DNA of 64,000 nucleotides. Source: an uncultured Chloroflexia bacterium (lineage in GTDB: Bacteria > Chloroflexota > Limnocylindria > Limnocylindrales > CSP1-4). Shown here piece after piece: positions 46,559 to 63,077 of the stretch. A program made the translations under genes and the position numbers. Position 1 is the first letter of the stretch. Each line of letters begins with the position of its first letter. The notes beneath the pieces are model-generated. The model worked only from the letters and a program-made list of their open reading frames with translations, was not told the origin of the DNA and made no database searches. The stretch is taken from assembly GCA_963777975.1 (NCBI GenBank), contig CAVZSO010000010.1:118847-182846 (forward strand), in the 5' to 3' direction.

Positions 46559-48716
46559 ATGAAGCCAAGCAGCCCCGTCCACGAGGCCCGACACCGACCC
46601 CTGATGACCGCCATCCGCCCGCCTGCGACTCGACGTCGACCGCGTCCGATCGACCCGCCGGCCATCCCCTACATCAACCGCGAGCTCTCGTTGCTCGACC
46701 TGAACGCGCGCGTCCTGCACGAGGCGACCGATGAGCGCAACCCGCTGCTGGAGCGGGTTCGCTTCCTGTCGATCGTCTCGGGCATCCTCGACGAGTTCTT
46801 CCAGATCCGCGTGGCGGGCCTCAAGCAGCAGGTCGAGGCAGGACATTCGAAGCTCGGGCCGGACGGACGCAGCGCTGCCGAGACGCTGTCCGAGGCACGA
46901 CGCAAGGTGCTCGACCTGATCGTCGAGCACACGCTGGCCTTCAACAAGGTTCGCGAGGCGATGGCCGAGCAGGGCATCACCATCGTGCGCTACGACGAAC
47001 GACCCGAGCGCCACCTCGAGCTGCGACGGATGTTCATCGACCAGATCTTCCCGGTCCTGACGCCGCTGGCCGTCGACCCTGGCCATCCCTTTCCGTACAT
47101 CAGCGATCTGTCACTCTCCCTCGCGGTGACCGTGCGCGATCCCGAGACGGGCGAGCGAGACTTCGCCCGCATCAAGGTCCCCGAGGTCCTGCCGCGCATG
47201 GTCGAGGTCGGCGTTCGGACCTACATGCTCCTGGAGCAGATCATCGCGGCCAACCTCGATGCGCTCTTCCCGGGCATGGAGATCGTCGAGCACCATCTCT
47301 TCCGAGTGACCAGGAATGCCGACCTGGCGATCGAGGAGGACGAGGCGGATGACCTCCTGCTGGCCATCGAGGAGGAGCTCCGGCGGCGACGGTTCGGCGA
47401 GGCGGTGCGCCTCGAGGTCGAGCGCTCGATGCCGACCGAGACGCGGTCGATCCTGCGGCGTGGCCTGGGCGTCGGCCCCGAGGATGTCTACGAGATCTCG
47501 GGCATGCTCGATCTGCGGGCGCTGGAGACGATCGCCGACCTCGAGATCCCCGAGCTGCAGCGCGAGCCCTGGCACCCGGTCGTCCCCGCGCGGCTGCTGC
47601 CGCACGACGAGGACGAGGAGGCAGACGTCTTCGCCGCCATCCGCACCGGCGACCTGCTCGTCCACCACCCGTATGAGTCGTTCGTCGGCTCCGTCCAGCG
47701 CTTCATCGAGCAGGCGGCCAGCGATCCAGACGTGCTGACCATCAAGATGACCCTCTACCGGACGACGGGCGACTCACCGATCCTCAAGGCGCTCATCCGG
47801 GCCGCCGAGAACGGCAAGCAGGTCGTCGTCCTGGTCGAGATCAAGGCCCGTTTCGACGAGCAGGCGAACATCGTCTGGGGCCGCACGCTGGAGCGCGCCG
47901 GCGCCCACGTCGTCTACGGCCTGGTCGGCCTCAAGACCCACTCCAAGACGGCGCTCGTCGTGCGCCGCGAGGGCGGCGGCCTGCGTCGCTACGTCCACAT
48001 CGGGACCGGCAACTACAACCACAGGACCGCACAGGCTCTACGTCGACTTGGGCATGCTGACCTGCGACGACGAGATCGGCGCCGATGTGACCGACCTCTT
48101 CAACTTCCTGACCGGACTCTCCCGCCAGCGCCGCTTCCGCCGGCTGCTGATCGCACCGGTCAGCCTGCGGCCGCGCATCGAGGAGCTCATCGAAGGTGAG
48201 ATCGAGCGCCAGGCGTCGGATGCTGATGGCGCCATCACCATGAAGCTCAACGCGCTCGTCGATCCGGGCATCATCGCTGCCCTCTGCCGTGCCAGTCAGG
48301 CGGGCGTGCCAGTGGATCTCATCGTGCGGGGTGCCTGCGCCCTCCGGCCGGGCGTCAAGGACGTCAGCGAGGGGATCCGCGTCCGTTCCATCATCGGCCC
48401 CTTGCTCGAGCACTCTCGGATCCTGCGCTTCGGACAGGGCGAGCGGACGACGCACTGGATCGGCTCGGCCGACATGATGGATCGCAACCTCGACCGCCGC
48501 GTCGAGGCCGTGGCGCCGGTCCTCGACCCCGTCAGCAAGGGCCGCCTCGATCACATCCTCGAGGTCATGCTGGCCGACGACCGACGAGCCTGGGAGCTTG
48601 GTCCCGACGAGCGCTGGCAACGGGTCGAGTGGCGACTCGAGAACCCCACGGGCCTCGACACGTTCGAGGTCTTCAAGCAGGAAGCCCTCTCCGCGGGCGC
48701 GACGGAGGTGGCATGA
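46559..48716 (+). pseudogene. ppk: polyphosphate kinase 1 with an apparent +1 frameshift near 48030
   Basis: YINRELSLLDLNARVLHEA...YVHIGTGNYNHRTAQ in one frame. The +1 frame continues LYVDLGMLTCDDEIGADVTDLFNFLTG...HSRILRF (PLD-like HxK region). One extra G at cagGctc. Confidence 0.75.
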
Positions 48717-50776
48717 CGGGGAGCCCGGTCGAGATCGAGCTCAAGTACGGGGTGCGCGATCCGGAGGCCGTCGAGCGCCTGCTCGAAGGCGATCGCCTGG
48801 GCGACCTGGTGGTCGGACCGTGGGGCACGGTCGAGGTCGTCGATCGCTACATCGACACCGCCGACCTGCGTCTCGAGACGGAGGGCTGGAACGCCCGGCT
48901 GCGGACGACCGAGGCGGGCACCAGCCTGGACCTCAAGTCGCTCGATGACGTGGCCGTCGAGCCCGAGGCCGGCCGACGACCCCAGGGCGCGTCCCTGCGC
49001 CGTCGGATCGAATGGAGTGGCCCAGCGACGGAGCACCTCGATCCGAGCGAATGGCCGGAATCGGGAGCTCGCGCGAGGCTCGCCGCGCTGGCGGCCGATG
49101 CTCCGCTCGAAGAGCGATTCACGCTCCGTCAGACCCGTCGCGAGCGTGAGCTGAGGGGCACCAGCGGGTGGGCGATCCTGAGCCTCGACGACGTCAAGGT
49201 GGAACACGATGGGCGGCCGATCGGTCGTTTCGGCGCCCTGGAGATCGAGATGAAGGGCGGCGACGACAAGCTGCTCGACAGCGTGGCCGAGCTGCTGGAG
49301 TCGAGCGGCGTGGTCGAGGATGCGCCGGCCTCGAAGCTGGAGGCCGCCTTGACGATGCTGGCTCGCGCCGGCATCGACGTCCCATCGGCCTACACGCCGG
49401 CGCTCGTCGAGCCGACCCCGGCCGAGATCGATGATGAGGTCGCGGCGTCCGATGTCGAGGACCTCTCGGACGCGAGCGCCGGCGATGGCATCTCCGATAG
49501 CCTGATCGGCGTCGACGCTGGTCGCCGTCGCGATGGGGAGCGCGATGATGTTCCGACGATCGACCCTGCCTCGACGATGGAGGATCTGGCGAGCCCGGAG
49601 ATCGGAGGCGTGGACCTCGAGGCAGCGCTCGAGCGCAGCGCCGGCGCCGACCGCGAGGACGCTGCGGTCGATCGGCTGTTGACAGCCGAGCTGTCGACCC
49701 TGGGCACGGCCCACAGCGACGATGACCTGCCGGTCGTCGACGAACGTTCGCCCGACGAATCGGAACAGACGGACACGGGCGACAGTGTCGACGCGGGCGA
49801 GGAAGCAGCCGCCCCAGCGGCCAAACCAGAGCCGCGCCTGGTCACCGGCCGGACACCTGGGGTCGTCGGCGGCGACCCCTTGGCTGAGGCCGGCCGGAAG
49901 ATCCTGCGCTTCCATTTCGCGCGCATGCTCGAGCGCGAAGCCGGCACCCTCAGCGGCGAGGACATCGAGGACCTGCATCGGATGCGTGTCGCGACACGCC
50001 GGATGCGGGCGGCCTGGCGGCTCTTCGGCGACGCGTACAAGCCAAAGGCCGAGCGCCGCTACGTCCGCGAGCTGCGAACGGTGGCCAACAGCCTGGGCGC
50101 GGTGCGCGACCTCGACGTCCTGCTGGAGAACCTGGCCGCCTACGTCGCGCTGCATCCCGCCGAGGAGGGTGCCGCACTCGAGCCGCTGGCCAGCGCCTGG
50201 CAGGAGCAACGCGAGACGGCTCGCCGGAACATGGCGGCGATGCTCGACTCCGGCACATACCGGCACTTCGTGGACGACTACCTCGCCTTCGTCGAGACCG
50301 ACGCCGCGGCCGCTCGGGCCGTCGAGGCCACCCAGCCCAGCCGCGTTCGCGACACGGCCACCAGCCGTATCTGGGGCGCCTACGAGCAGGTCCGAGCCTA
50401 TGACGCGACGCTGGCCTGGGCGGACGTGGCGACGATCCATCAGCTGCGCATCGCCTCGAAGCGGTTGCGCTACTCGCTCGAGTTCTTCCGCGAGGTGCTC
50501 GGGCCGGACGCCGGTCCGCTGATCGAGCGTGTGACGCGACTCCAGGATCATCTCGGCCTGCTCAACGATGCCGACGTCGCGGCCCGACTCGCCCGTGAGT
50601 TCCTCGTCGCCTCCGCGGCCAGGCTGGCACCGCCGACGATCGAGGCGGTCGGACGCTATCTCGGTGCCCGCGACCGCGACGTGGCCCGGCTCCGACGTTC
50701 GCTGCCCGCCGCCTGGCGCCCGCTGGCGGCCGAGAGCTTCCGGCGCGCGCTCGGACGGGCCGTCAGCGCGCTCTAG
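48713..50776 (+). CDS. CYTH domain (triphosphate tunnel) - acidic linker - CHAD domain protein
   Basis: N-terminal VEIELKYGV...EIEMKGG CYTH pattern. ~160-aa Asp/Glu-rich linker. C-terminal CHAD with HRMRVATRRMRAAWRLF and IHQLRIASKRLRYSLEFF. ATGA-coupled to ppk. Confidence 0.7.
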   Translation: MTGSPVEIELKYGVRDPEAVERLLEGDRLGDLVVGPWGTVEVVDRYIDTADLRLETEGWNARLRTTEAGTSLDLKSLDDVAVEPEAGRRPQGASLRRRIEWSGPATEHLDPSEWPESGARARLAALAADAPLEERFTLRQTRRERELRGTSGWAILSLDDVKVEHDGRPIGRFGALEIEMKGGDDKLLDSVAELLESSGVVEDAPASKLEAALTMLARAGIDVPSAYTPALVEPTPAEIDDEVAASDVEDLSDASAGDGISDSLIGVDAGRRRDGERDDVPTIDPASTMEDLASPEIGGVDLEAALERSAGADREDAAVDRLLTAELSTLGTAHSDDDLPVVDERSPDESEQTDTGDSVDAGEEAAAPAAKPEPRLVTGRTPGVVGGDPLAEAGRKILRFHFARMLEREAGTLSGEDIEDLHRMRVATRRMRAAWRLFGDAYKPKAERRYVRELRTVANSLGAVRDLDVLLENLAAYVALHPAEEGAALEPLASAWQEQRETARRNMAAMLDSGTYRHFVDDYLAFVETDAAAARAVEATQPSRVRDTATSRIWGAYEQVRAYDATLAWADVATIHQLRIASKRLRYSLEFFREVLGPDAGPLIERVTRLQDHLGLLNDADVAARLAREFLVASAARLAPPTIEAVGRYLGARDRDVARLRRSLPAAWRPLAAESFRRALGRAVSAL

Positions 50777-50804
50777 GCAGGCGCGGCACCCGCGGCGAGG
50801 CGAG

Positions 50805-51773
50805 TCAGCCCGCGTCCGGCCAGCCGGCGGTCAATGCGGTCAGCTGTGAGCGCCAACCCGGGCCCGCGTGCCGCAGGGCCAGGACCGCACCTTCACGCAG
50901 GCTCGCTTCGCTGACCTCGACGGTCTCGAGCTCGTAGCGCTCCATGAACGCCAGCACCAGCGCCGCGCCGGCCGGCAGCAGGCGGGCCCGAGTCGGGGTC
51001 AGGCGATAGCGCTCGGCCAGCACGGCGCTTGGCGTTCGGTCGATCTCGTGGATCGCCTGTTCGACGCCGACCCGCGGCACGGCCGTGTCCGGCGCCGCCG
51101 GGTCACCGCCCCTGACCCCGGCCACCACCCGAGCGACGTTCGTGGCGCTGCCACCGACGAAGACCGCGCGCGACGGATGGCCACGCGGCGCGGCGGCCAG
51201 GAGCTCGCGGGCCCGTATCGCGAGCTGCTCTCGATCGGCCGGCATCGGCGGGTCGGCCGGCTCGCAGGCCTGGGTCAGTCGGCTGGAGCCGGTCGCGATG
51301 ATGAACGTCCGAGGCGGGACGCCCGGACCCTGGACGATGGCTTCCGTCGAGCCGCCGCCGATATCGACGACCAGGAGCGGCGCCTCGACCGGCGCCCCGC
51401 CGGTCACGCCGAGCAGGGTCAGCTCGGCCTCGTCGGCATGATCGAGGACCACGATGGGCACGCCGATCCGGCCCAGGACCATCTCGGAGACCTCGTCGGC
51501 ATCCGTCGCCCGACGGAACGGTTCCGCCCCCAGCAGGAGCAGCTCGTTGGCATGCCATCGGCGGGCCGTGGTAGCGAAGCCCTCGAGCGTCTCGACGAGT
51601 GCGGTGCGCGCCGCGAAGGGCAGCCGCCCATCGCGATCGACGATGCCGCCCAGGCCGAGCAGGGCGCTCTCGTCGGCCAGAGGCGTGACCGTGTGGTCGC
51701 CAACCAGCGCCACCAGCAGGTGAGCCGTGTTGCTTCCGATGTCGACGGCCGCGATGACCTCAGGCGCCTGCAC
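50805..51773 (-). CDS. ppx: Ppx/GppA family exopolyphosphatase
   Basis: IAAVDIGSNTAHLLV, LLVVDIGGGSTE. Confidence 0.75.
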   Translation of the reverse strand: MQAPEVIAAVDIGSNTAHLLVALVGDHTVTPLADESALLGLGGIVDRDGRLPFAARTALVETLEGFATTARRWHANELLLLGAEPFRRATDADEVSEMVLGRIGVPIVVLDHADEAELTLLGVTGGAPVEAPLLVVDIGGGSTEAIVQGPGVPPRTFIIATGSSRLTQACEPADPPMPADREQLAIRARELLAAAPRGHPSRAVFVGGSATNVARVVAGVRGGDPAAPDTAVPRVGVEQAIHEIDRTPSAVLAERYRLTPTRARLLPAGAALVLAFMERYELETVEVSEASLREGAVLALRHAGPGWRSQLTALTAGWPDAG

Positions 51774-52422
51774 ACCTCAAGGATGACAGGGCCCGCGACG
51801 GATGCGGGGGCCAGGTCGAGGCCGGCCGCCGCTGGCGAAGCCGGGCGCCGAACCTGGCGCCGTTCAGCCGGCCGCCTTGCCTCGCGCTCCGCGGCGTGGT
51901 CGCGGCCGACCTCGGGCTGCGCGCGACCGGCGCCGGCTCGGCTGAGGTACCGGACGTGGACTCCACCGCTGTCGCTTGCGCCGGGGCGCGACGCCCCGTC
52001 GTTCGGCGGCGCACGGCTGGCTTCTTCGCCGCGGTGGTCGTGGCGCGAGGTCGCGACGGCGTCCCCGCCCTTCGGGCTGCGGCGAGATCCGACCGGATCG
52101 CGGCCACGAGCGCGTTGACGGCGGCCTGGAGCTCTTTGGCGGTGACCAGCTGCTCCTCGAGCTCGGCGACCTTCTTGAGGCGCTTCTTCTCGGCCTTGGC
52201 GGCCTTGGCGGCCGCCTTCTTGGTCGCCTCGGCGGCGGCCCTGGCCGCGGCCCGCTCGGCCTTGGAGGGCTTTGGAGCGGGCGCGTCGGCCGCCCCGGCA
52301 GCGGCTTCGCCGCCTGACTTGTGCTTGGCCATCTCGAGGAGCTCCTTGTCGGTGGGCACCGTGCCGGACCCTTGCTCGTCCGGGACGCGCAGTATCCCAC
52401 CCTCCGACGCGTACCAAGCCAT
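51760..52422 (-). CDS. hypothetical Lys/Ala-rich coiled-coil protein with basic low-complexity tail
   Basis: ATG 52422. KAERAAARAAAEATKKAAAKAAKAEKKRLKKVAELEEQL. The C-terminal 80 aa is low-complexity R/S/T/P-rich and could conceal a frameshift. Overlaps the ppx start by 14 nt. Confidence 0.3.
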   Translation of the reverse strand: MAWYASEGGILRVPDEQGSGTVPTDKELLEMAKHKSGGEAAAGAADAPAPKPSKAERAAARAAAEATKKAAAKAAKAEKKRLKKVAELEEQLVTAKELQAAVNALVAAIRSDLAAARRAGTPSRPRATTTAAKKPAVRRRTTGRRAPAQATAVESTSGTSAEPAPVARSPRSAATTPRSARQGGRLNGARFGARLRQRRPASTWPPHPSRALSSLRCAGA

Positions 52423-52492
52423 GGCGCATCGTTAACACGCCGAACACGACAAGAAAATGGTGCGTTGACGCACGCAGCCGAGACTGCGGGCC

Positions 52493-53572
52493 ATGAACCA
52501 CACGATTCGCACCACGACCCTGCCCCGCCGCGCCCGTCTCGCTGGCCTTGCGGCAGCCAGTCTCATGCTGGTCAGCGCCTGCGCCACCGGGGGGAGCTCG
52601 CCAGCCGCGAGCACGGGGACATCATCCGAGCCAACCCCGACGACGGCAGCGTCCGGGGCCGCGGGCCTCGAGGGCACCATCGCCATCTCGGGCTCATCGA
52701 CGGTCCAGCCCATCACGTCGGCCATCGCGGAGGCCTTCAACGGCACCAATCCTGACGTTGCGATCTCGGTCGACGGACCGGGCACCGGTGACGGCTTCAA
52801 GCTCTTCTGCGCCGGGTCGATCGACATCAGCGACGCCTCGCGCACGATCAAGGACGAGGAGGCCGCGCTGTGCAAGACGGCCGGCATCGACTACATCGAG
52901 CTCAAGATCGCCATCGATGGCATCTCCGTGCTGACGTCGACGGACAACACCGCGGTCGCCTGCCTGTCGTTCGCCGACTTGTACGCGCTCATCGGCGAGC
53001 AGTCCAAGGGCTTCAAGACCTGGGCCGACGCGCAGCCACTGGCCAAGGAACTCGGCTCGAACACGACGTTCCCGAGTGGCTCCCTCGACATCTTCGGTCC
53101 CGGCGAGGAATCGGGCACCTACGACAGCTTCATCGAACTGGCCCTCAAGACGATCGCCGTCGCCCGAGGTCAAACGGGCACGGCCACCCGCCCCGACTAC
53201 ACCTCGTCGGCCAACGACAACGCGATCATCGATGGCATCGCCAATTCGGCGACCTCGCTGGGCTGGGTGGGCTTCGCCTATGCCGAGGAGAACAAGGACA
53301 AGGTCGGCGAGATCGCCGTCTCCAAGGACCCCAACGGCACGTGCGTGTCGCCGAATGCCGAGACGATCGCGAGCGGCGAGTATCCGCTGTCGCGTGCCCT
53401 GTACATCTACGTCAACAAGGCCAAGCTCGCCGACAACGCCGCCCTGGCGCCGTTCGTCGACTACTACCTGGCTGATGGCACCATCTCGACGGCACTCGAG
53501 ACGGTCCCCTACATCAACCTCGCGCCAGAAGAGCTAGCCAAGACCGTGGCGACCTGGACCGGCAGCCACTGA
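52493..53572 (+). CDS. pstS: phosphate ABC transporter substrate-binding protein
   Basis: Lipoprotein-like signal LAGLAAASLMLVSACA; GSSTVQP, DGPGTGDGF. Confidence 0.85.
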   Translation: MNHTIRTTTLPRRARLAGLAAASLMLVSACATGGSSPAASTGTSSEPTPTTAASGAAGLEGTIAISGSSTVQPITSAIAEAFNGTNPDVAISVDGPGTGDGFKLFCAGSIDISDASRTIKDEEAALCKTAGIDYIELKIAIDGISVLTSTDNTAVACLSFADLYALIGEQSKGFKTWADAQPLAKELGSNTTFPSGSLDIFGPGEESGTYDSFIELALKTIAVARGQTGTATRPDYTSSANDNAIIDGIANSATSLGWVGFAYAEENKDKVGEIAVSKDPNGTCVSPNAETIASGEYPLSRALYIYVNKAKLADNAALAPFVDYYLADGTISTALETVPYINLAPEELAKTVATWTGSH

Positions 53573-53600
53573 TCGTCGTCTTGGATACGTCCTCTTCCCT

Positions 53601-53634
53601 CCGAGGCCGGACTCCCATCCTGGGTCTCGGCCTC
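53601..53634 (+). terminator. GC-rich hairpin (CGAGGCCG...CGGCCTCG, extendable) between pstS and pstC; candidate intra-operon attenuator/processing stem-loop (no U-tract)
   Basis: Seen directly: 8-bp perfect arms with additional flanking pairs and an 18-nt loop. Confidence 0.4.
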
Positions 53635-53669
53635 GCCCTCCTGCCGGTGACGCGAGGCCAAGCTGACCG

Positions 53670-54611
53670 ATGACCGCGAGCTCAGGCGCGATACCCGTCG
53701 CGCCACGGCCGCACCTGACGGGGTCGCCCACGCGACGCCGCAACGAGCGGATCGTGCGTTCCGTCTTGTTCCTTGCGGCGCTCGTATCGATCCTCATCTC
53801 CGCGTTCATCGTCCTGAGCATCATCGGTCAGGCGTTCAGCTTCCTGGCCCAGATCGACCTGTCCCAGCTGACCGCCGAGGGGTGGTTCCCACGTCGCGGC
53901 CTGTTCGGGATCTCGACGCTCATCGTCGGATCGCTCCTGGTGACCGGCATCGCCATCGTCATCGCAGCACCGGTCGGCATCGCGTCCGCGATCTACCTCG
54001 CGGAGTACTCCGGTCCGCGGACACGCGGCATCGTCAAGCCCATCCTGGAGATCCTGGCAGGCATCCCGAGCGTCGTGCTCGGTTTCTTCGCGCTCACGGT
54101 CATCACGCCAAAGGTCATCCAGGTCTTCTTCCCGACTGCCAACGGCTTCAACCTGCTGGCGGCCGGCATCGGCGTCGGCATCCTGACCATCCCGCTCATC
54201 GCGACCATCTCGGAGGACGCCATGCGCGCCGTGCCTCACTCGCTCCGGGAGGGGGCCTACGGCCTGGGCGCACGGCGCGCCACCGTCAGCCTGCGCATCG
54301 TGGTACCGGCGGCCATCTCGGGCATCGTGGCCGCGCTCATCCTCGGCATCTCGCGCAGCATCGGCGAGACGATGGTCGTGGCGCTCGCGGCGGGCGCGTC
54401 CGGTGGCACGCTGTTCACGACGAACGTCCTGGGACCCGGCCAGACGGTGACCGCCGCGATGGCGGCCCTGGCCACGGGCTCCGACCAGGTGACTGGCAAC
54501 ACGGCGGCCTTCCAGAGCCTCTTCTTCCTGGGCCTGATGCTCTTCCTGGCGACCCTCGGCCTGAACGTCCTCGGCGACGCCTTCGTGCGTCGGACGCGGC
54601 AGCGCTACTGA
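53670..54611 (+). CDS. pstC: phosphate ABC transporter permease PstC
   Basis: 313 aa; EAA-like loop and typical PstC TM pattern. Confidence 0.85.
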   Translation: MTASSGAIPVAPRPHLTGSPTRRRNERIVRSVLFLAALVSILISAFIVLSIIGQAFSFLAQIDLSQLTAEGWFPRRGLFGISTLIVGSLLVTGIAIVIAAPVGIASAIYLAEYSGPRTRGIVKPILEILAGIPSVVLGFFALTVITPKVIQVFFPTANGFNLLAAGIGVGILTIPLIATISEDAMRAVPHSLREGAYGLGARRATVSLRIVVPAAISGIVAALILGISRSIGETMVVALAAGASGGTLFTTNVLGPGQTVTAAMAALATGSDQVTGNTAAFQSLFFLGLMLFLATLGLNVLGDAFVRRTRQRY

Positions 54612-54619
54612 GCCGCGCG

Positions 54620-55552
54620 ATGACCACCGTCGCACCGCCCGTATCAGCCCAGGCGGCCACCTCGATCCCACTTGGTGAGCACCGCCGGAACGTGGGCGGC
54701 CTGACGTTTCACGTGCTGCTGCTCATCGCACTGCTCTTCTCGCTGGGCGTGCTCGCGACGCTCGTGATCAGCGTCCTGATCGGCGGTCTGCCGGTCCTCA
54801 TGGAGCGCGGGCTCGACTTTCTGACCAGCCCGACGTCGGCCAACCCGAACAAGGCCGGCGTCGTGCAAGGCATCATCGGCTCGCTCATCATGACCGCGAT
54901 CGTGGCCCTGGTCGCCATCCCGCTGGGCATCATGACCGCCATCTACCTCGAGGAGTACGCGCCCGCGAGCCGGCTCTCGCGCTTCATCGACATCAACATC
55001 CGCAACCTGGCCGGCGTGCCCTCGATCGTCTACGGCCTCCTCGGCTTCACGGTCTTCGTGACGGTCCTGGCACCAGTGACTGGCGGCACGACCATGCTGT
55101 CGGCAGGGCTGACGCTTGCCGCACTCGTGCTGCCCATCGTCATCATCGCCTCGGCCGAGGCTATCCGGTCGGTGCCGCACGAGCTTCGCGAAGGTGGCTA
55201 CGGGATCGGCGCCTCGCGCTGGCAGGTGACCCGAGAGCTCGTCCTGCCGGCGGCCATGCCGGGGATCCTGACGGGTACCATCCTGGCCCTCGCGCGGGCG
55301 ATCGGCGAGACGGCTCCCCTGCTGCTCGTGGGCGCGGTGCTGGGCTACTTCTCGAGTGGTAGCCAGGGGCCCCTCGAGCAGCTGTTCGGCAAGTTCACGG
55401 CCTTGCCGACCCTCATCTACGACTGGGCTCGGCGCCCCCAGAGCGAGTTCAGGGACCTGACCTCGGCCGCTATCATCGTGTTGCTGGTGATCACGCTCTT
55501 TGCCACCGCGGTCTCCATCTACCTCCGCAACAGGTACCAGAAGAGATGGTGA
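54620..55552 (+). CDS. pstA: phosphate ABC transporter permease PstA
   Basis: 310 aa; follows pstC. Confidence 0.85.
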
Positions 55553-56442
55553 TGCAAGAGGACCTGACGGTGACGCACGACGACCCGATGGTCGCGCCCA
55601 GCGAGGCGCCAGGGCACGGTTCCGCGACGATGACATCACCGCGACTCTCGCCCGAGGTCTTCGGGGCGGCTGTGGCCGTCGAGCCCATCATCAGACTCGT
55701 GGACGTCTCCATCTGGTACGGGCTCTTCCGGGCCGTGCGCGGCTTCTCGGCGGAGATCCCGGCCAATCGGGTGACGTCCCTCATCGGTCCGTCGGGCAGC
55801 GGGAAGTCCACGTTGCTCCGGTCGATCAACCGCATGAACGACCTGATCCCTGGCGCCCGATTGGAGGGTGGCGTCCTCTATCACGGACAAGACCTCTACG
55901 GCGCCGGCATCGATGCGGTCGAGGTTCGTCGGCGCATCGGCATGGTCTTCCAGAAGCCCAACCCATTCCCCAAGTCCATCTACGACAACGTCGCCTTCGG
56001 CCCGCGGCTGAGCGGCTTCAAGGGAGACCTCGACGGGCTCGTCGAGACCAGCCTCCGCCGCGCCGCGCTGTGGGACGAGGTCAAGGACAAGCTCAAGTCG
56101 TCCGGCCTCGCACTCTCGGGCGGCCAGCAGCAGCGCCTGTGTATCGCCCGCGCCATCGCCACCGAGCCAGAGGTCATCCTGATGGACGAGCCGTGCTCGG
56201 CGCTGGACCCGCGGGCCACGCTCCAGATCGAGGAGCTGATGCGGGATCTCAAGGAGCGCTACACGATCGTCATCGTGACCCACAACATGCAGCAAGCGGC
56301 ACGCGCATCGGACCGCACCATCTTCATGACTATGGGCGAGGATCGGGCCGGCTACGTCGTCGAGGCCGACGAGACGAACCGCATCTTCACGCAGCCGGCC
56401 AACCAGCTGACCGAGGACTACGTGTCGGGACGCTTCGGATGA
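55546..56442 (+). CDS. pstB: phosphate ABC transporter ATP-binding protein
   Basis: [35 protein letters not shown]. Confidence 0.85.
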
Positions 56443-57182
56443 GCGAGCTCGAACGGGGCTCCGGCGCCGTGCCCGTCGAGGCCAGCAACGAAGGGCCCAG
56501 CCACGAGCCCTCGCCGCGGGCCGACATCGCGCGCTCGCCGCTCGACCGGGAGATGCGCGAAGCCAAGGATGGCGTGCTGCGCATGGGCTCGATGGTCGAG
56601 ATCCAGATTCGCAAGGCCCTCGAGGCACTCGTCGCGCACGACGAGGCGGCGGCCACGGCGGTCATCATCGGCGACCGGCGCATCAACGAGGTCCAGGTCG
56701 AGGTCTCCAACGTCATCACCACGGCCATCGCGACCCAGGGTCCGGTCGCGCGCGACCTGCGCTTCCTGCTGACGCTCGACCACGTGACCTACGAGCTGGA
56801 GCGGATGGGCGACCACGCATCGTCGGTCGCCAAGCAGGCCCGCAAGCTGGCGCCCTTCCCTCCGCTCAAAGGCTATGTCGACCTGCCCCGCCTGGCCTCC
56901 CTGGTCGCCGATCAGGTCAGAGGCATCCTCCATGCGCTGGTCGACATCGACGTCGAGCGCGCTCGAACGGTGGCAGCCGTCGATGACGAGATCGACACCC
57001 TCTATCACCACATCTTCGATCAGGTCGTCGAGCTCATGCGCGCGAACCCCGACAACGTCGATCGTGGCACGCGCATCCTCTTCGCCGCGCATTACCTCGA
57101 GCGCATCGGCGACCGGGTCACGAACATCGCCGAGGACATCGTCTTCCTGGCCTCAGGGCAGATCGAGGACCTCAACCCCTGA
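56439..57182 (+). CDS. phoU: phosphate signalling complex protein PhoU
   Basis: Two PhoU repeats with conserved ExxxD motifs ([22 protein letters not shown]). ATGA overlap with pstB. Confidence 0.8.
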
Positions 57183-57614
57183 CGACGACCGCTCGACCCG
57201 CTCGTGTCCTGTTCGCCTGCGTGGCGAACTCGGCACGGAGCCAGATGGCCGAGGCCCTGCTGGCCGCTCGGGGCGGCGCCAGCTTCACGCCGGCCAGCGC
57301 GGGTGTCGTGGCCAGCCGCGTCCACCCGCTCACGATCGCGGTCCTGGCGGAGCTGGGGATCGACTGGTCAAGGGCCACCTCGAAGGCGCTGGCGCCGATG
57401 CTCGAGCACGACTGGGACCTGGTGGTGACGGTCTGCGATGAGGCGGTCGAGGCCTGCCCCTACATCCCGCCACCGACCCGCGTCCTGCACTGGTCGTTCG
57501 ACGACCCGGCTGCCGCGACCGGCAGGCGACGCGCAACGGCTGACGACCTTTCGACGCGTTCGCGACGAGATCGCCACGCACATCGATGCCCTCGTCGAAA
57601 CGGAGACGCGATGA
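57179..57614 (+). pseudogene. arsC: LMW-PTP-type (thioredoxin-coupled) arsenate reductase with an apparent +1 frameshift near 57520-57545 and a non-canonical CTG start overlapping the phoU stop
   Basis: RVLFACVANSARSQMAEALL (CX5R P-loop), VVTVCDEAVEACPYIP (Cys pair). After DPAAATG the +1 frame continues TFRRVRDEIATHIDALVETETR*. The first in-frame ATG/GTG would delete the catalytic Cys. Confidence 0.55.
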
Positions 57615-58088
57615 CCGAGCTGCTCATGCTGCGCCACGCCCACGCCGGCGATCCGATGGCCTGGACCAAGTCCGACGACATCCGACCGCTGTCCAAGAAG
57701 GGCCGCGACCAGGCGGCCCGCATGGCCACCTTCCTGGCTGCGAGCCGGGGTCCGGCCCGACGTCATCGTCTCCAGCCCGAAGGCCCGAGCGATGCAGACG
57801 GCCACGCCAGTCGCCGACGAGCTGGGCCTGAAGGTGCGAGTCGACGAGCGCCTGGCCGAACCCTTCGGCCTGGCCGAGATCGAGGCGTTGCTCGTCGACC
57901 TGGGCGACCCGGAACGCCCGATGCTCGTGGGCCACGATCCTGACTTCACGTCGCTCGTTGCCGTCCTCTGCCACGCGCCATCGGTGCCCATGCGCAAGGG
58001 AGCCCTGGTGCGCATCGACGCGCCACGGCCACTGTGTCCCGGGTGCGGCACGCTGCGCTGGTTGGTGCCGCCGGAGCTGCTGCCCTAG
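57611..58088 (+). pseudogene. sixA: SixA-like phosphohistidine phosphatase (histidine phosphatase superfamily) with an apparent +1 frameshift near 57748
   Basis: MTELLMLRHAHAG (RHG motif)...ATFLAAS in one frame. The +1 frame continues VRPDVIVSSPKARAMQTATPVADELGL...LVGHDPDFTSL. ATGA overlap with arsC. Confidence 0.55.
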
Positions 58089-58091
58089 CGA

Positions 58092-58447
58092 CTAGGCGGG
58101 CAGGACCGGCAGCCGCCGTCCCGCCAACGCCTCGCCACGAGCGCGGTCGAGCGCCGTGCCCGGGCTGGCCGGGGTCAGCTCGCGTGCCAACCGAGCCAGC
58201 CGCTCGACAGCGGCGGGCTCGAGGGCGTAGTAGATCCAGGTGCCCCGCCGCTCTGCGGTCACGACACCCGCCTCTCGCAGGACGCGCAGGTGGTGGGAGA
58301 CCGTCGGCTGCGATCGGTCGATCCCGACGGTCAAGTCGCAGGCACACGTCTCCAGTTCGACGGCCAGCTGGCGCACGATGGCCAGGCGCATCGGATCGGC
58401 CAGCGCGTGGAGCAGCCGCGCATCTGGATCGGCCTCTCGTGTCACCC
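58092..58447 (-). CDS. arsR: arsenite-responsive ArsR family repressor
   Basis: GTG start. LLHALADPMRLAIVRQLAVELETCACDLTVGIDRSQPTVSHHLRVLREAG carries the ELCVCDL-type As(III)-binding Cys pair (ETCACDL). Confidence 0.65.
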
Positions 58448-58471
58448 CGCTATAATATCCATCATCGTCTA

Positions 58472-58489
58472 TATTGACAACTATCAATA
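58472..58489. promoter_or_regulatory. inverted repeat TATTGA-CAACTA-TCAATA in the AT-rich divergent arsR / lysE-arsM promoter region; candidate ArsR operator
   Basis: Seen directly. Overlaps a minus-strand -35 TTGTCA (17 nt from -10 TATTAT), consistent with leaderless arsR. A plus-strand TATAAT sits at 58451-58456. Confidence 0.4.
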
Positions 58490-58509
58490 CAGCCAGTAGG
58501 GTCACCGGC

Positions 58510-59127
58510 ATGACGAATGTCATCATCGCCGGGATCGTGGCCGGCCTCGGTGTCGCCATCCCGGTCGGCGCCATCGCCGTCCTGATCATCGAGACCACGG
58601 TTCGCCATGGCTTTCGTGTCGGCTGGGCCGGTGGCGCGGGGGCCGCCACGGTCGATGGCGGCTACGCGCTGCTGGCCGCGTTCTTCGGCACCGCTGTCGC
58701 CGCCGTCCTTGCGCCCTGGACGGTGCCTCTGCAGCTCATCTCCGTCGGGCTCCTGGTTGCCATCGCGATGCGTGGGCTGTTGGCATTGCGCCGGCCGCCC
58801 GAGGCGGACATCGGGCAAGACCCGCCGACGATGCGCCGCGCCTACCTGCTGATCCTCGGCTTGACCGCCATCAACCCGCTCACCGTCACCTACTTCGTGG
58901 CGCTCATCCTGGGATTGCCGTCGCTTGCCCAGGACCCCGGCTCCCGCGTCGTCTTCGCGGCCTCGGCGTTCGCCGCCTCGCTGGCCTGGCAAACGTTCAT
59001 CGCCGGTGTCGGGGCCGTCGTCCATCACACAGCGTCGACGCGGATCCGGACCCTGACCTCGATCCTCGGCAGCCTGATCATCCTGGGCCTGGCCGGGCTG
59101 ATCCTCGTCGACCTCGTCCAGTCATAG
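58510..59127 (+). CDS. LysE/RhtB family exporter
   Basis: 206 aa, 6 TM; IIAGIVAGLGVAIPVGAIAVLIIETTVRHGFRVGWAGGAGAATVDGGYALLAAF is the typical LysE N-terminus. The upstream TTG-initiated ORF start at 58474 was rejected. Confidence 0.55.
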   Translation: MTNVIIAGIVAGLGVAIPVGAIAVLIIETTVRHGFRVGWAGGAGAATVDGGYALLAAFFGTAVAAVLAPWTVPLQLISVGLLVAIAMRGLLALRRPPEADIGQDPPTMRRAYLLILGLTAINPLTVTYFVALILGLPSLAQDPGSRVVFAASAFAASLAWQTFIAGVGAVVHHTASTRIRTLTSILGSLIILGLAGLILVDLVQS

Positions 59128-59186
59128 CCATGTCAGCCAACGCCCTGCCATCAAGGCGCGGGCGAGGAGCAGAAGGAGCACCGACC

Positions 59187-59954
59187 ATGACCACCATCCC
59201 GACCGCCGCCGACGAGCTGACCGAGTCCGTCCGAAGTCACTACGCCCGCACCGCCTTGAGCGTGCTCGAGTCGAGCGACGCGACGGCAGCTTGCTGTGAC
59301 GATGGCTGCTGTGGCGGCACGGACGCTCGATGGGGCGCCACCCTCTACGACCTCAGGGATCGCACGTCGCTGCCCGATGCCGCGGTGCTGGCCAGCCTCG
59401 GCTGCGGGAACCCGACCGCGATCGCCGACCTGCAGGAAGGCGATCGCGTCCTCGACCTGGGTTCCGGAGGCGGCATCGATGTCCTGCTCTCGGCCCAGCG
59501 TGTCGGCTCGGCCGGGCGTGCCTTCGGCCTCGACATGACGGACGAGATGCTCGCACTCGCCCAGCGCAATGCCGCCGACGCCGGAGCCACGAACGTCGAG
59601 TTCCTGAAGGGGCGCATCGAGGCCATCCCACTGCCCGCGGGATCGATCGACGTCGTCATCAGCAACTGCGTCATCAACCTCTCCGCCGACAAGCCGGCGG
59701 TCCTGGCCGAGATGGCGCGCGTCCTGCGGCCCGGTGGACGGATCGGCATCAGCGACGTCGTCGCCGACGACGCGCTCGAGCCCGAGGAGCGCGCGCGGCG
59801 CGGCAGCTTCGTCGGCTGCATCGCCGGCGCACTCTCGTTCCACGAGTATCGGCACGGCCTCGAGGCCGTCGGCTTCGCCGACATCGCGGTGACGGCGACG
59901 CACGCCGTGGCCGACGGGATGTGGTCGGCCATCATCACCGCCGTTCGGGCCTGA
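59187..59954 (+). CDS. arsM: arsenite S-adenosylmethionine methyltransferase (ArsM/AS3MT family)
   Basis: SLGCGNPTAIADL, VLDLGSGGGIDVLLSAQRVG, GLDMTDEMLALAQRNA, NVEFLKGRIEAIPLP, DVVISNCVINLSADK, VGCIAGAL. Near-identical motif order to characterised ArsM; the N-terminal Cys pair CCDDGCC is present. Confidence 0.8.
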   Translation: MTTIPTAADELTESVRSHYARTALSVLESSDATAACCDDGCCGGTDARWGATLYDLRDRTSLPDAAVLASLGCGNPTAIADLQEGDRVLDLGSGGGIDVLLSAQRVGSAGRAFGLDMTDEMLALAQRNAADAGATNVEFLKGRIEAIPLPAGSIDVVISNCVINLSADKPAVLAEMARVLRPGGRIGISDVVADDALEPEERARRGSFVGCIAGALSFHEYRHGLEAVGFADIAVTATHAVADGMWSAIITAVRA

Positions 59955-59995
59955 TCCCTCGGACCTCTGTGGCGGATCCCCGGGGCCCCGCCTGG

Positions 59996-60661
59996 CTAAG
60001 GGGCTCCATCCAGCGGGCGACCCTCGACGCAGACCACCTGGACGCCGAGCCGCTCCAGGCGTCGAACGGTCACCTCGCGACGGACCGTGAAGGCGGCCAG
60101 CTCGAGCCCGGCCTCGCGGACGATCCGCACCGAGCTCGGGCTGATGGACCGCCACTGAGCGGCGATCCCGCGGCACCCGAGCGACCGGGCGCGCTCGACG
60201 ACGCCGGCGTCGAGCCAGTCGCTGTTCAGCCAACGCGGCCACCGGGGGAGGCGTCGCGCGACCGCGACCAGGGCATCGGGCAGGTAGGACGACACCACGG
60301 CATCGGCAGGCTGAGGTCCTCGTGCCGCCTCGAGCAGGCGCGCGACCGTCGCGTTTGGCGTGACCTTCAGCTCGACGTCGAGGAACGCCGTCGACGGCAG
60401 GGCGGCGAGCACATCGGCCAGCGTGGGCACCCCGTAGCTCGCGAGGACGCCCGTTTCGGCCCCGACGACCGGGCCGTCGACGCCCTGGACACGCGTCAGC
60501 GACGGATCATGGATGACGACCGGCGTTCCGTCGGCGGCCAGGTGGACGTCGAACTCGAGCCCGTCGGAGCGAGCGGCCCGCGTGCCCGCGATCAGCGCCG
60601 CGAGGCTGTTCTCGGGCGCCGATCGCCAGTCGCCACGATGCGCCAGCCGCAGGATGCGCAT
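59996..60661 (-). CDS. ugpQ: glycerophosphodiester phosphodiesterase
   Basis: RLAHRGDWRSAPENSLAA, LEFDVHLAADGTPVVIHD. Confidence 0.7.
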   Translation of the reverse strand: MRILRLAHRGDWRSAPENSLAALIAGTRAARSDGLEFDVHLAADGTPVVIHDPSLTRVQGVDGPVVGAETGVLASYGVPTLADVLAALPSTAFLDVELKVTPNATVARLLEAARGPQPADAVVSSYLPDALVAVARRLPRWPRWLNSDWLDAGVVERARSLGCRGIAAQWRSISPSSVRIVREAGLELAAFTVRREVTVRRLERLGVQVVCVEGRPLDGAP

Positions 60662-60699
60662 CGGCGGCGTGCCCGATGACGTACCGGGCTCGACCGCCA

Positions 60700-61473
60700 T
60701 CAGGCGCCGATCTCGAGCTCGGCCAGGATGCCTCGGTGGTCGGAGGGGAAGAGGGTCGGGTCATCGACATCCGGCCGATCGAAGGCCAGGCGGGCCGAGC
60801 GCACCCTGACCAGGGCGCTGACCCAGACATAGTCGAGGCAGCGAGGCTGGCCATCGGTGTCCATGGCCGGCGCCTGGAGCCCGGACGGCCAGGTCACGTC
60901 GGGCTCGGCGCCATTCGCCTCTCGATAGGCGGACCGGAATCCGCCGTCGATCATGCGGCCATAGGTCGGTTCGAGCGGATCGGCATTGAAGTCGCCGGTC
61001 ACGATCGTGGCATCGGCAGCGGGCAGCCCCGACAGCCAGGTCAGCAGCGCATCGGCCTGCGCGGCCCGGATCTGGTCGTGCTCGTCACCGATCATGTGAT
61101 GGAGGTGCGTGTTGACGAGGCGCACGTGCAGCCCGTTCCCGAGCTGCAGCTCGGCCCGGCCGGCGCTCCGTTCAAAGCCCAGTGCCAGGCGATCGGCGTC
61201 GTCCGCCGGCGCCAGCCCGTCGGCCATCGGACGGCGGACCAGGATGCTGTTGCCGGCCTCATCGGGCCGGTAGGCCCAGGCGCGCCGGATGGCATAGTGG
61301 CCTTCGCCCGAGGCTGCCAGCAGCCGGTCCTGCTGCATGACGTAGACCGCCTCCTGGAGCCCTGCGACGTCCGGCTGGAGCGCCGCGAACTCGGCCAGCA
61401 GCAGCGGCAGGCGCTCCGGCCAGCGGTCCGCCATGTTGAGGATGTTGAGGGTCAGGACTCGGAGCGTCGGCAT
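60700..61473 (-). CDS. endonuclease/exonuclease/phosphatase (EEP) family protein
   Basis: LRVLTLNILN, GLQEAV, VNTHLHH, VTGDFNADP, PSDHRGILAEL. Confidence 0.65.
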   Translation of the reverse strand: MPTLRVLTLNILNMADRWPERLPLLLAEFAALQPDVAGLQEAVYVMQQDRLLAASGEGHYAIRRAWAYRPDEAGNSILVRRPMADGLAPADDADRLALGFERSAGRAELQLGNGLHVRLVNTHLHHMIGDEHDQIRAAQADALLTWLSGLPAADATIVTGDFNADPLEPTYGRMIDGGFRSAYREANGAEPDVTWPSGLQAPAMDTDGQPRCLDYVWVSALVRVRSARLAFDRPDVDDPTLFPSDHRGILAELEIGA

Positions 61474-61490
61474 CGTCGGACTCCCATGCG

Positions 61491-63077
61491 TCAGGCAGGC
61501 ACGAGTCGGCGCTCGAGGTTCTCGACCTCGAACCTGGCCAGCTCTCGAGCGACGCGTTCGGCATCCCAGCCCAGGCGCTCGACCGCGATGGCGGCGACCG
61601 CCTCGGCAGCCTCGCGACCGAGGTCGGGCCCGAAGCCCAGCATCAGACGACGGAGCACGATGTCGCCGAGCGTCTGCGCCCACTCGACGCCGATGGCGTG
61701 GGCGACCTCGGCGCGCAGCGCATCGCCGACCGGCAGCAGCGGCAACGACCACCAGCCGTCGGCGTCGGCGATGGCGCTGACCTCGGCAGCGCGAGCGCCG
61801 TAGATCCGCCACAGGCGGTGGGCGTACGGGCCGGCGGCGGCCGTCGGCTCGGGCGGCAAGGCCAGCGAGCCGACATCGGTGTCCGCGAGCGCGTGTCGAT
61901 CGCGTCGGTCGAGCAGCTCGTCGACGACTTCGGCGGCGATGGAACGCCAGGCGGTCAGCTTGCCACCGGCGACCGTCGTCAGGCCCGGTGCACCGTCGCG
62001 CGCGTGGTCCACCAGGAGATGCCGCCGCGAGACGCGGTTGGCGAGGCCCGACTCACGGACGAGCGATCGAACGCCGACGCTGCCCCAGAGCGGCTCCATG
62101 GCGTTCGACGCCGGCAGCACGCGGTTCGCGCCGCGCACGAGGTAGGCCACTTCTTCGGGCGTCACGCTGGCATCGTCCGGTCCACCGGGCACGTCGCGCT
62201 CGGTGGTGCCGATCATCGTCATGCCTTGCCAGGGGACCGCGAAACAGAGGCGCCGATCATCGGGATGCTCGAAGGCCACGGCATGCTCGGCCAGCCGCGG
62301 ATAGACGATGTGGATGCCCTGGACGAGGCGCAGCAGCGGTCGAGCCTCGAGGCCCATGCCGGCCAGGGTCGCGTCCGCCCACGGGCCGGTGGCGTTGATG
62401 GTCCGCCCGGCCATGACCGTCGCCGAGACCCCATCCAGCGTGCCGCTGAGCTCGACACCGACGACCCGCCCGCCGCCGTCACGGCGCAGGCCCGTCGCGG
62501 CCGTGTGGTTGCGCACCTCGGTGCCGGCCTCCTGCGCGGCGCGCAGGGCGTCGAGCACGAGGCGCTCGGGCAGCTCGACCTGGGCGTCCCAGTAGAGCGC
62601 GGCCTCGCTCAGTCGATCCGTCGAGAGGCCCGGCTCGATGGCCGCCGCGGCGGTGCGGCTCATGAACCGGTGTCGCGGCATCGAGCGGCGTGGGGACAGC
62701 AGGTCGTAGAGCGTCAGGCCGGCCCGGAGGCGCAGTCGGTGCCAGAGCGGCTCGTGGTAGAAGGGCAGGATGAAGGGCAGCGGCGTGACCAGGTTGGGCA
62801 TCCGTCGAAGCTGCCAGGCGCGCTCTCGCAGCCCCTCGCGAACGACGCCGATGTCGTAGTTGGCGAGGTACCGGAGGCCGCCGTGGATGAGCCGCGTGGA
62901 GCGGGCCGTGGTGCCCCAGGCGAAGTCTCGGCGCTCCACGAGCAGGGTCGACAGGCCGCGCCGCGAGAGCTCCTTGGCCACGCCTGCGCCGAGGATGCCG
63001 CCACCGATGACGACCGCGTCGACCCTGGACCCGTCGAGCCCGGCCACGCCCGAGGTCGTGACCCGGTCGACGCTCAC
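61491..63077 (-). CDS. glpD: FAD-dependent glycerol-3-phosphate dehydrogenase
   Basis: DAVVIGGGILGAGVAKELSRRG (FAD Rossmann), LIHGGLRYL. Proposed GTG start overlapping the glpK stop (GTGA). Confidence 0.75.
   Translation of the reverse strand: MSVDRVTTSGVAGLDGSRVDAVVIGGGILGAGVAKELSRRGLSTLLVERRDFAWGTTARSTRLIHGGLRYLANYDIGVVREGLRERAWQLRRMPNLVTPLPFILPFYHEPLWHRLRLRAGLTLYDLLSPRRSMPRHRFMSRTAAAAIEPGLSTDRLSEAALYWDAQVELPERLVLDALRAAQEAGTEVRNHTAATGLRRDGGGRVVGVELSGTLDGVSATVMAGRTINATGPWADATLAGMGLEARPLLRLVQGIHIVYPRLAEHAVAFEHPDDRRLCFAVPWQGMTMIGTTERDVPGGPDDASVTPEEVAYLVRGANRVLPASNAMEPLWGSVGVRSLVRESGLANRVSRRHLLVDHARDGAPGLTTVAGGKLTAWRSIAAEVVDELLDRRDRHALADTDVGSLALPPEPTAAAGPYAHRLWRIYGARAAEVSAIADADGWWSLPLLPVGDALRAEVAHAIGVEWAQTLGDIVLRRLMLGFGPDLGREAAEAVAAIAVERLGWDAERVARELARFEVENLERRLVPA

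Follow-up and report, generated by a model that had tools for sequence, protein, structure and literature searches.

A pstSCAB-phoU gene cluster extended by arsC and sixA through overlapping junctions, probably a phosphate-regulated operon, in Limnocylindria

We analyzed a 64-kb stretch of DNA (the window; about 70% G+C) from a soil Chloroflexota bacterium (Limnocylindria). Seven genes on the + strand between 52.5 and 58.1 kb, identified with Pfam and NCBIfam, follow one another in the order pstS-pstC-pstA-pstB-phoU-arsC-sixA, as an initial annotation had proposed. The gene for the phosphate-binding protein PstS (52493..53572) matches PBP_like_2 (9.9e-28) and scores 203.6 bits against TIGR02136, just below the cut-off of 206.6 bits. 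The permease genes pstC (53670..54611; TIGR02138, 227 bits) and pstA (54620..55552; TIGR00974, 260 bits) as well as phoU (56439..57182; TIGR02135, 182 bits) score above the cut-offs of their models, and the ATPase gene pstB (55546..56442) reaches 377 bits against TIGR00972. Next come arsC (57179..57614; LMWPc, PF01451; TIGR02691, 112.6 bits), which would encode an arsenate reductase with the fold of low-molecular-weight protein tyrosine phosphatases (LMW-PTP), and sixA (57611..58088; His_Phos_1, PF00300; TIGR00249, 67.2 bits), which would encode a SixA-type histidine phosphatase of 158 residues after correction of its frame. In its corrected frame, arsC runs from a putative CTG start at 57179 to a TGA stop at 57612-57614. 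We consider it likely that these genes constitute a seven-cistron operon characteristic of Limnocylindria, probably Pho-regulated and transcribed from a Pho-box-type promoter, and that the frameshifts which interrupt arsC and sixA in the window are assembly consensus errors.

The initial annotation had described the genes from pstB to sixA as joined by overlapping stop and start codons. The overlaps at pstB/phoU (ATGA, 56439-56442), phoU/arsC (cTGA, 57179-57182) and arsC/sixA (ATGA, 57611-57614) can be read directly from the DNA, the frameshifts in arsC and sixA having been overlooked; the last overlap joins the two genes only once the arsC frameshift is corrected. Further upstream, the pstA-pstB overlap is 7, 4 or 1 nt long, according to which start is chosen, and gaps of 97 nt and 8 nt separate pstS from pstC and pstC from pstA. 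The final proline codon of PhoU, together with its TGA stop, creates the NTGA overlap (N being any base) with arsC. A Shine-Dalgarno-like GAGGA, encoded by the C-terminal ..IEDLNP* of PhoU, precedes the arsC start by 8 nt. In the window sixA is not set off by a gap, and its ATG has a GGAG 5 nt upstream. Four-base overlaps are frequent in operons and would carry little weight alone, yet their conservation in relatives lifts them above chance.

Relatives were collected as PhoU matches in one-genome-per-species data. All of them are Chloroflexota of the class Candidatus Limnocylindria, represented by metagenome-assembled genomes (MAGs) from soil and freshwater. Among the 75 species-level loci with enough sequence 3' of phoU, 43 carry arsC-sixA downstream of phoU, 21 sixA alone, 5 arsC alone and 6 neither, so that sixA follows phoU in 85% of the loci (64/75) and arsC in 64%. 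The phoU/arsC junction, analyzed in the 51 loci with arsC after phoU, reads GTGA in 27, ATGA in 14, TTGA in 2 and CTGA in 3, the window being a further case of the latter. Four-nucleotide overlaps also recur between arsC and sixA (18 of 42 loci, the remainder mostly having gaps of 4-32 nt) and between phoU and sixA (8 of 23). Several of the phoU-sixA "gaps" hold recognizable arsC remnants. In the next-closest relative, L002, the remnant ..RVLFPGVADSARSQ.. lies between phoU and sixA; at L002:8745-8831 it reads LTTPTDQQTRVLFPGVADSARSQSVEETT, with the catalytic cysteine replaced, and is in frame with the sixA GTG. Remnants are also found in L006 and L067. Because such remnants persist between phoU and sixA, arsC has been lost repeatedly while sixA was retained, and of the two genes sixA has the closer link to phoU. 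This strong phoU-sixA linkage accounts for most of the interest of the locus.

The co-expression of arsC and sixA with the Pst importer, which the initial annotation had suggested, is well supported by inference from the absence of any intergenic space, the Shine-Dalgarno-like sites within the upstream genes and the recurrence of the 4-nt overlaps. It had named a separate promoter or terminator between phoU and arsC as evidence that would speak against this. None was seen there, or anywhere from phoU through sixA, in a crude scan of 51.7-60.1 kb for intrinsic terminators and for promoters of the sigma-70 consensus, which may not suit Chloroflexota. The few terminator-like matches in that region lay inside or upstream of pstS and pstC and lacked context. 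Similarly, a search of 51.5-60.2 kb against Rfam (E<=0.1) returned no family. A palindrome between the stop codons of sixA and the downstream arsR was considered as a terminator and rejected, its folding being no better than that of shuffled sequence (z = -0.38).

The start of this transcript most likely lies in the 70-nt intergenic region upstream of pstS, which holds a putative Pho-box promoter (52431..52492, + strand). It consists of four units phased by 11 nt, GTTAACACGCC GAACACGACAA GAAAATGGTGC GTTGACGCACG, reading GTTAAC.. / (C)TTAAC.. / GCACAC.. / GTTGAC.., and of a -10-like GAGACT (of the pattern (G/A)AGACT) about 7 nt before the pstS ATG, a distance that suggests a leaderless or near-leaderless mRNA. 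Of 30 relatives, 23 have CGTTAAC in the pstS upstream region, and the layout of their repeats is the same; within the 64 kb, no site other than the one before pstS matches the repeat pattern well. The repeat looks like a Pho box and may function as one. With its GTTAAC-type repeats, the putative box would be closer in sequence to PhoP boxes of the TTAACA type, as in Firmicutes, than to that of E. coli. On the other side of the intergenic region, and divergent from pstS, lies a Lys/Ala-rich open reading frame (ORF) of 220 residues (51760-52422, - strand), which is 68-70% conserved in L002 and in the closest genome locus, L001, and has no Pfam match.

The cTGA overlap had been taken to imply that arsC starts at CTG, and this assignment holds up well. 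Between the upstream stop (56984) and the catalytic cysteine codon, the arsC frame contains no ATG, GTG or TTG. Its first canonical start is a GTG at 57221, inside the CVANSARS P-loop, and the sole earlier options are the CTG codons at 57179 and 57209. In the relatives, the arsC start codon is made up of the third base of the final proline codon of PhoU and the TG of its TGA, and 43 of the 51 relatives have a canonical start at exactly the position of the window CTG. The choice of this proline codon is telling. Background proline codons are CCG (59%), CCC (31%), CCA (6%) and CCT (4%). When arsC follows, the last proline codon before the TGA is CCG in 23 loci, CCA in 14, CCC in 3 and CCT in 2, that is, CCC is depleted (p=3e-4) and CCA enriched (p=8e-8). 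In loci without arsC, by comparison, the last codon of PhoU is CCC in 13 of 22 (Fisher p=1e-5). Since CCC is depleted and CCA enriched when arsC follows, the position is selected as the start codon of arsC, and CTG is the disfavored state.

This state is shared by a lineage composed of the window, L001 (94% DNA identity to the window over the operon stretch) and the contigs L081-L086, of which L081 is a short-read metagenome contig 95% identical to the window. The arsC genes of this CTG lineage are 82-92% identical to one another, and six sequences in this range all read CTGA at the junction. Among codons 6-22, a segment that contains the catalytic CVANSARS loop, variation affects 9 codons and is synonymous throughout; amino acid changes are confined to codons 4-5, which vary freely in the manner of an N-terminal tail. 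Because the variation upstream of the first canonical start is purely synonymous, the 17 codons that precede it are translated, and the lineage is not decaying. Initiation or re-initiation at the CTG after termination of phoU would be the simplest route, although the initiating codon itself is deduced. CTG is a poor initiator in model bacteria, and the start is probably weak and dependent on coupling.

One could also imagine that, in the CTG lineage, ribosomes reaching the end of phoU slip by -1 on C-CCC-UGA and make a PhoU-ArsC fusion, dispensing with initiation at CTG. The arsC frame is indeed -1 relative to phoU, it lacks a canonical start, and AAC CCC TGA would let tRNA-Pro re-pair on CCC one base back, beside a slow stop. 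Nevertheless, we regard such a slip as extremely improbable: the canonical start at the same position in 43 of 51 relatives, under selection, makes separate initiation the ancestral state, and the free variation of codons 4-5 after the CTG resembles that of an N-terminal tail. A stimulatory structure is not known, none having been looked for. Initiation at CTG, our preferred reading, has a consequence for databases. Public gene calls for arsC in this lineage begin at Met23, giving 122 residues that lack the catalytic cysteine loop (clusters P0001, P0007, P0009, P0010, P0011, P0015, P0016, P0019, P0024 and P0026). These calls are truncated because the start is CTG and no canonical start is available to gene callers, which makes them a systematic annotation artefact.

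In the window itself, three-frame translation showed that the reading frames of arsC and sixA are both interrupted; each shifts to the +1 frame midway. In arsC the first frame reads up to ..FDDPAAATG, after which the +1 frame takes over with GDAQRLTTFRRVRDEI..ETETR*; in sixA it reads up to ..MATFLA and is followed in the +1 frame by GVRPDVIVSSP.... The extra base is located at 57524/57525 in arsC and within 57740-57743 (about 57741) in sixA. DNA alignment of the window with L001 revealed exactly two single-base insertions in the window, one per gene, and both bases are absent from the DNA of three relatives (94%, 95% and 89% identity). Neither L001 nor L081 differs from the window by any other coding-region indel in the 5 kb that extend from the pstS end to sixA. 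We also compared the window, at the protein level, with a 1510-nt Logan contig from an independent sequencing run. This contig encodes an intact arsC product (P0001) that equals the corrected window protein over all 122 called residues, followed after a 4-nt overlap by an intact 158-residue SixA (P0241) that matches the corrected window SixA exactly, and then by arsR. When the window is compared with L001, the ratio of nonsynonymous to synonymous substitution rates (dN/dS) is 0.19 for arsC, 0.085 for sixA and 0.11 for phoU, and 0.13 for the part of sixA 3' of its frameshift. Such low values argue against decay of either gene.

Both extra bases fall at sites where close strains differ. At the arsC break, strain variants read GGC-GGC or GGC-AGC and the window reads GGC-A-GGC; at the sixA break, GCGA in the window stands against GGA or GCG in the strains. 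This is the pattern that we would expect from a consensus over mixed strains. In addition, a frame census of the 64 kb based on G+C content at third codon positions uncovered at least 3 confirmed and 3 probable frameshifts in unrelated genes, housekeeping genes included. Counted with the other breaks, they amount to about one frameshift per 8 kb, a rate typical of an unpolished long-read assembly. The polyphosphate kinase gene ppk1 (46649-48710, +) is split near 48025 inside PP_kinase_C_1, within the conserved GTGNYN..TA|RLY motif, and an ABC ATPase gene (18189-19137, +) near 18530 inside ABC_tran, at profile position 88. A membrane-bound spermidine-synthase-like gene (12556-14713, +) is broken into five frame segments, with breaks near 13045, 13210, 13360 and 13624. 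Its separate fragments, between 12.5 and 14.7 kb, gave no Pfam match, and the concatenated fragments match aminopropyltransferase models that bridge the last junction. Many of the related genomes were drawn from a series of long-read MAGs, and matches in them are split in a similar way. Programmed frameshifting was rejected as the cause of the breaks in arsC and sixA, as the extra bases are missing in L001, L081 and other CTG-lineage contigs and neither site is slippery. Because the DNA of relatives lacks the bases, the proteins are intact on an independent contig and unrelated genes are frameshifted as well, the two frameshifts are most likely assembly consensus errors and not biology.

We also weighed whether arsC and sixA might be genuine pseudogenes in this strain, in an operon extension that decays by a weakening of the start to CTG first and by frameshifts later. 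The frameshifts are present in the sequence as given, CTG is the disfavored start, most of arsC is deleted in the next relative L002, and L006 and L067 keep only remnants. This scenario nevertheless seems quite unlikely in view of the intact proteins, identical to the corrected ones, on the independent contig, of the low dN/dS, also 3' of the sixA frameshift, and of the standing of sixA as the most conserved partner of phoU (64/75 loci), while the frameshifts in unrelated window genes such as ppk1 point to assembly error. We therefore continue with the corrected proteins, and apparent pseudogenes in the assembly of this window should not be read at face value.

Corrected ArsC has the LMW-PTP fold (PF01451, 8e-15, residues 10-138). 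Its closest solved structure is 8P5N, the arsenate-bound ArsC2 of Deinococcus indicus (DiArsC2; E=8e-36, full length), and the next solved relatives are the ArsC proteins of B. subtilis and of S. aureus pI258. The P-loop C14-VANSA-R-S, which is kept in 48 orthologues with its cysteine at least 95% conserved, aligns with Cys15 of DiArsC2 and Cys10 of B. subtilis ArsC. A Cys-X6-Cys pair in TVCDEAVEACP, equivalent to Cys82/Cys89, aligns with 8P5N and 1JL3, and both of its cysteines are at least 95% conserved in the same orthologues, where the catalytic motifs C-x2-N-S-x-R-S, TVCD..CP and HW..DP are conserved too. TIGR02691 is the best-scoring NCBIfam model, and its equivalog threshold of 174.3 bits is missed, so that the protein is best filed as a thioredoxin-type ArsC by the features of its mechanism and not as a curated equivalog. 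With three conserved cysteines and D. indicus ArsC2 as the closest structure (PMC10483234), the thioredoxin-type arsenate reductase proposed in the initial annotation is in good agreement with our findings.

Given the Pfam LMWPc match, the score below the ArsC equivalog cut-off and a partner that is itself of phosphatase fold, the protein could instead be a tyrosine or arginine protein phosphatase acting in phosphate signaling beside SixA. The further arsC copies by arsR-arsM in L009, L030, L055 and L077 would fit such a division of labor. We consider this very unlikely, since the Cys-X6-Cys pair, needed for the redox relay alone, is at least 95% conserved, and the best solved relatives, 8P5N at the top, are all arsenate reductases; the arginine phosphatase YwlE reaches just 1e-5. 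For the arsenate reductase that we favor, the same extra copies, which adjoin arsR-arsM and occur besides or in place of the phoU-linked one, suggest separate phosphate-linked and arsenic-linked paralogues.

The product of sixA is a single-domain member of branch 1 of the histidine phosphatase superfamily (PF00300, 2e-14), and its 158 residues align over the full length with 1UJB (161 residues) and 3F2I. E. coli SixA (1UJB) is the best solved relative (36.5 bits, E=5.6e-8). The motifs LRHAHAG (RHAhAG) and VGHDPDF, kept in 64 orthologues, align with the RHG and SHLP regions of this E. coli protein, and the best-scoring model, TIGR00249, narrowly misses its equivalog threshold of 74.5 bits. Relatives with short gaps before sixA share a TA(C/G)NCT hexamer (TAnnnT-type, -10-like) 6-11 nt upstream of its start. 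We observed it in arsC-sixA gaps of L009, L015, L018, L026, L028, L030, L032, L033, L035, L036 and L076, and in phoU-sixA gaps of L024, L053, L054 and L069. The hexamer resembles a -10 element spaced for a leaderless or very short-leader transcript.

The initial annotation had further proposed that SixA acts on a PhoR-type phosphorelay, and our data give this no support. The HPt domain of ArcB is one substrate of E. coli SixA. Others are NPr and Ndk (PMC7948535, PMC12934123), and none of the three is a sensor-kinase DHp histidine. A regular-expression search for the histidine-kinase H-box in all six frames of the window, a crude test, gave no match and thus no PhoR candidate. More generally, no gene for a SixA substrate (HPt, NPr, Ndk or kinase) was identified in the window, where the motif search covered kinases only. 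A broader idea, which we put forward as doubtful, is that SixA, made in fixed proportion to PhoU, serves as a dedicated, class-wide partner of Pst-PhoU sensing and resets a phosphohistidine relevant to phosphate economy each time the high-affinity importer is expressed. Candidate targets would be a Pho sensor kinase or HPt, nucleoside diphosphate kinase, or the phospho-enzyme of PPK1, encoded 4 kb upstream. The presence of sixA after phoU in 64 of 75 loci, its retention when arsC is lost and the frequent 4-nt overlap are consistent with such a partnership.

Downstream of sixA, an arsR-family gene (58092..58649, - strand; HTH_5, NF033788) converges on it and starts an arsR/LysE/arsM cluster. 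The true arsR start is probably further in, the relatives being called at 139-142 residues. Next to it are the genes for a LysE-family translocator (58474..59127, +; PF01810, 1.1e-12) and for the arsenite methyltransferase ArsM (59130..59954, +; NF008823, 285 bits, above cut-off). The translocator gene lies between arsR and arsM in the window and in L001, and recurs near pst in L003, L012, L042, L044, L051 and L058. The genes annotated from 46.6 to 64 kb included neither ArsB/Acr3 nor aio genes; because no ArsB/Acr3 was seen nearby, the LysE-family translocator is a candidate exporter for arsenicals. The wider surroundings (46649-64000) are rich in phosphorus genes: ppk1, a CYTH-CHAD gene (48629-50776) and ppx/gppA (50805-51773, -) precede the pst operon and the arsR-LysE-arsM genes. 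Beyond arsM lies a glycerophosphodiester-phosphodiesterase-like ORF (59996-60700, -), recognized by eye only, and further 3' are genes for an endonuclease/exonuclease/phosphatase-family protein, glycerol-3-phosphate dehydrogenase and glycerol kinase. CHAD and ppx genes occur near the pst operon in about two-thirds of the long loci.

This neighborhood raises the possibility that arsC-sixA belongs to the arsR/LysE/arsM cluster, is driven mainly by an arsenic-responsive promoter inside phoU, and is close to pst by chance. Besides the position of arsR and arsM directly downstream, 14 of 52 long loci have arsM no more than 8 kb from phoU, either before or after the pst operon, and a -10-like motif precedes sixA in some relatives. 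The layout is not that of a classical ars operon, however: arsR is convergent with sixA and not divergent, arsC follows phoU by a 4-nt overlap, and no ArsB/Acr3 is annotated between 46.6 and 64 kb. Furthermore, selection acts on the NTGA at the phoU stop as the start of arsC, the arrangement is kept in many loci with no arsR or arsM nearby, and the crude promoter scan gave no promoter-like site inside phoU. We thus hold membership in the arsenic cluster to be unlikely and keep to an extension of the pst operon.

How this operon would work can be outlined from its anatomy and its conservation. Phosphate limitation would activate the pstS promoter and yield a single mRNA from pstS through sixA. 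Ribosomes ending phoU would re-start on arsC, and those ending arsC on sixA, so that coupled translation would deliver ArsC and SixA in proportion to PhoU, with ArsC probably low in the CTG lineage. By the three-cysteine, thioredoxin-type mechanism expected from its family features, ArsC would reduce the arsenate that enters with phosphate scavenging, and methylation through the arsR-LysE-arsM cluster next door could serve as a sink for the arsenite (As(III)) produced. The idea that ArsC pre-arms the cell against arsenate entering with phosphate uptake is plausible by analogy, as it agrees with the induction of arsenate detoxification genes by limitation of inorganic phosphate (PMC11665274).

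Several points weigh against this interpretation. Co-transcription, coupling and Pho control are all argued from the arrangement of the genes and its conservation, and the sigma-70 consensus used in the promoter scan may be wrong for this phylum. ArsC and SixA both score below the NCBIfam equivalog cut-offs. The sequence as written encodes truncated ArsC and SixA, and a true double pseudogenization specific to this strain is conceivable. The weakness of the CTG start may make ArsC output very low, and arsC is dispensable in the clade, as L002, L006 and L067 retain remnants only. Finally, sixA lies 4-130 nt from the upstream gene in about half of the relatives, many of these gaps containing the hexamer, and it may have its own extra promoter there.

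If our interpretation is correct, the operon represents a hard-wired genetic answer to arsenate entry during phosphate scavenging, an ecological problem already known, in a class that is abundant in soil and fresh water and known here from MAGs only. For PhoU signaling and for roles of SixA beyond E. coli, the phoU-sixA pair, usually with arsC in between, offers a hypothesis testable in a heterologous host. In the literature searched, we came across neither a class-wide pstSCAB-phoU-arsC-sixA operon whose junctions are coupled nor a maintained CTG start. The components and the arsenate-phosphate logic are already known.

Compared with known systems, the locus resembles the pstSCAB-phoU of an E. 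coli-type Pho regulon in that the same five genes stand in the same order, phoU is the last phosphate gene, and a phased direct repeat, a putative Pho box, would take the place of the -35 element upstream of pstS. Unlike the E. coli-type operon, it has two further cistrons, arsC and sixA, tied to phoU by 4-nt overlaps. Its ArsC shares the LMW-PTP fold, the CX5R P-loop, the Cys-X6-Cys pair and the DP acid loop with the thioredoxin-coupled ArsC of pI258 and B. subtilis and with DiArsC2 (8P5N/8P6M, PMC10483234). It differs from pI258-type ArsC in being encoded outside an arsRBC operon and probably coupled to phoU in translation, in its CTG start in this lineage, and in its score below the TIGR02691 cut-off. 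Similarly, its SixA has the size (about 160 residues), the RH(G/A) motif and the second catalytic histidine of E. coli SixA (1UJB), from which it is set apart by low similarity, by the phoU context and by a score below the TIGR00249 cut-off. Physical linkage of arsenic resistance and phosphate acquisition genes, as in the window, is also found in Proteobacteria, where arsenic islands carry pst/pho genes (PMC3834237), and the phosphate-related genomic islands of marine HIMB59, with SixA, ppk, ppx and pstSCAB (PMC10734472), place SixA among phosphate genes as we see here. However, those islands are loose and often horizontally acquired neighborhoods, whereas the Limnocylindria genes appear to form a single coupled operon inherited class-wide, with neither aio nor arsB/acr3 genes annotated from 46.6 to 64 kb of the window.

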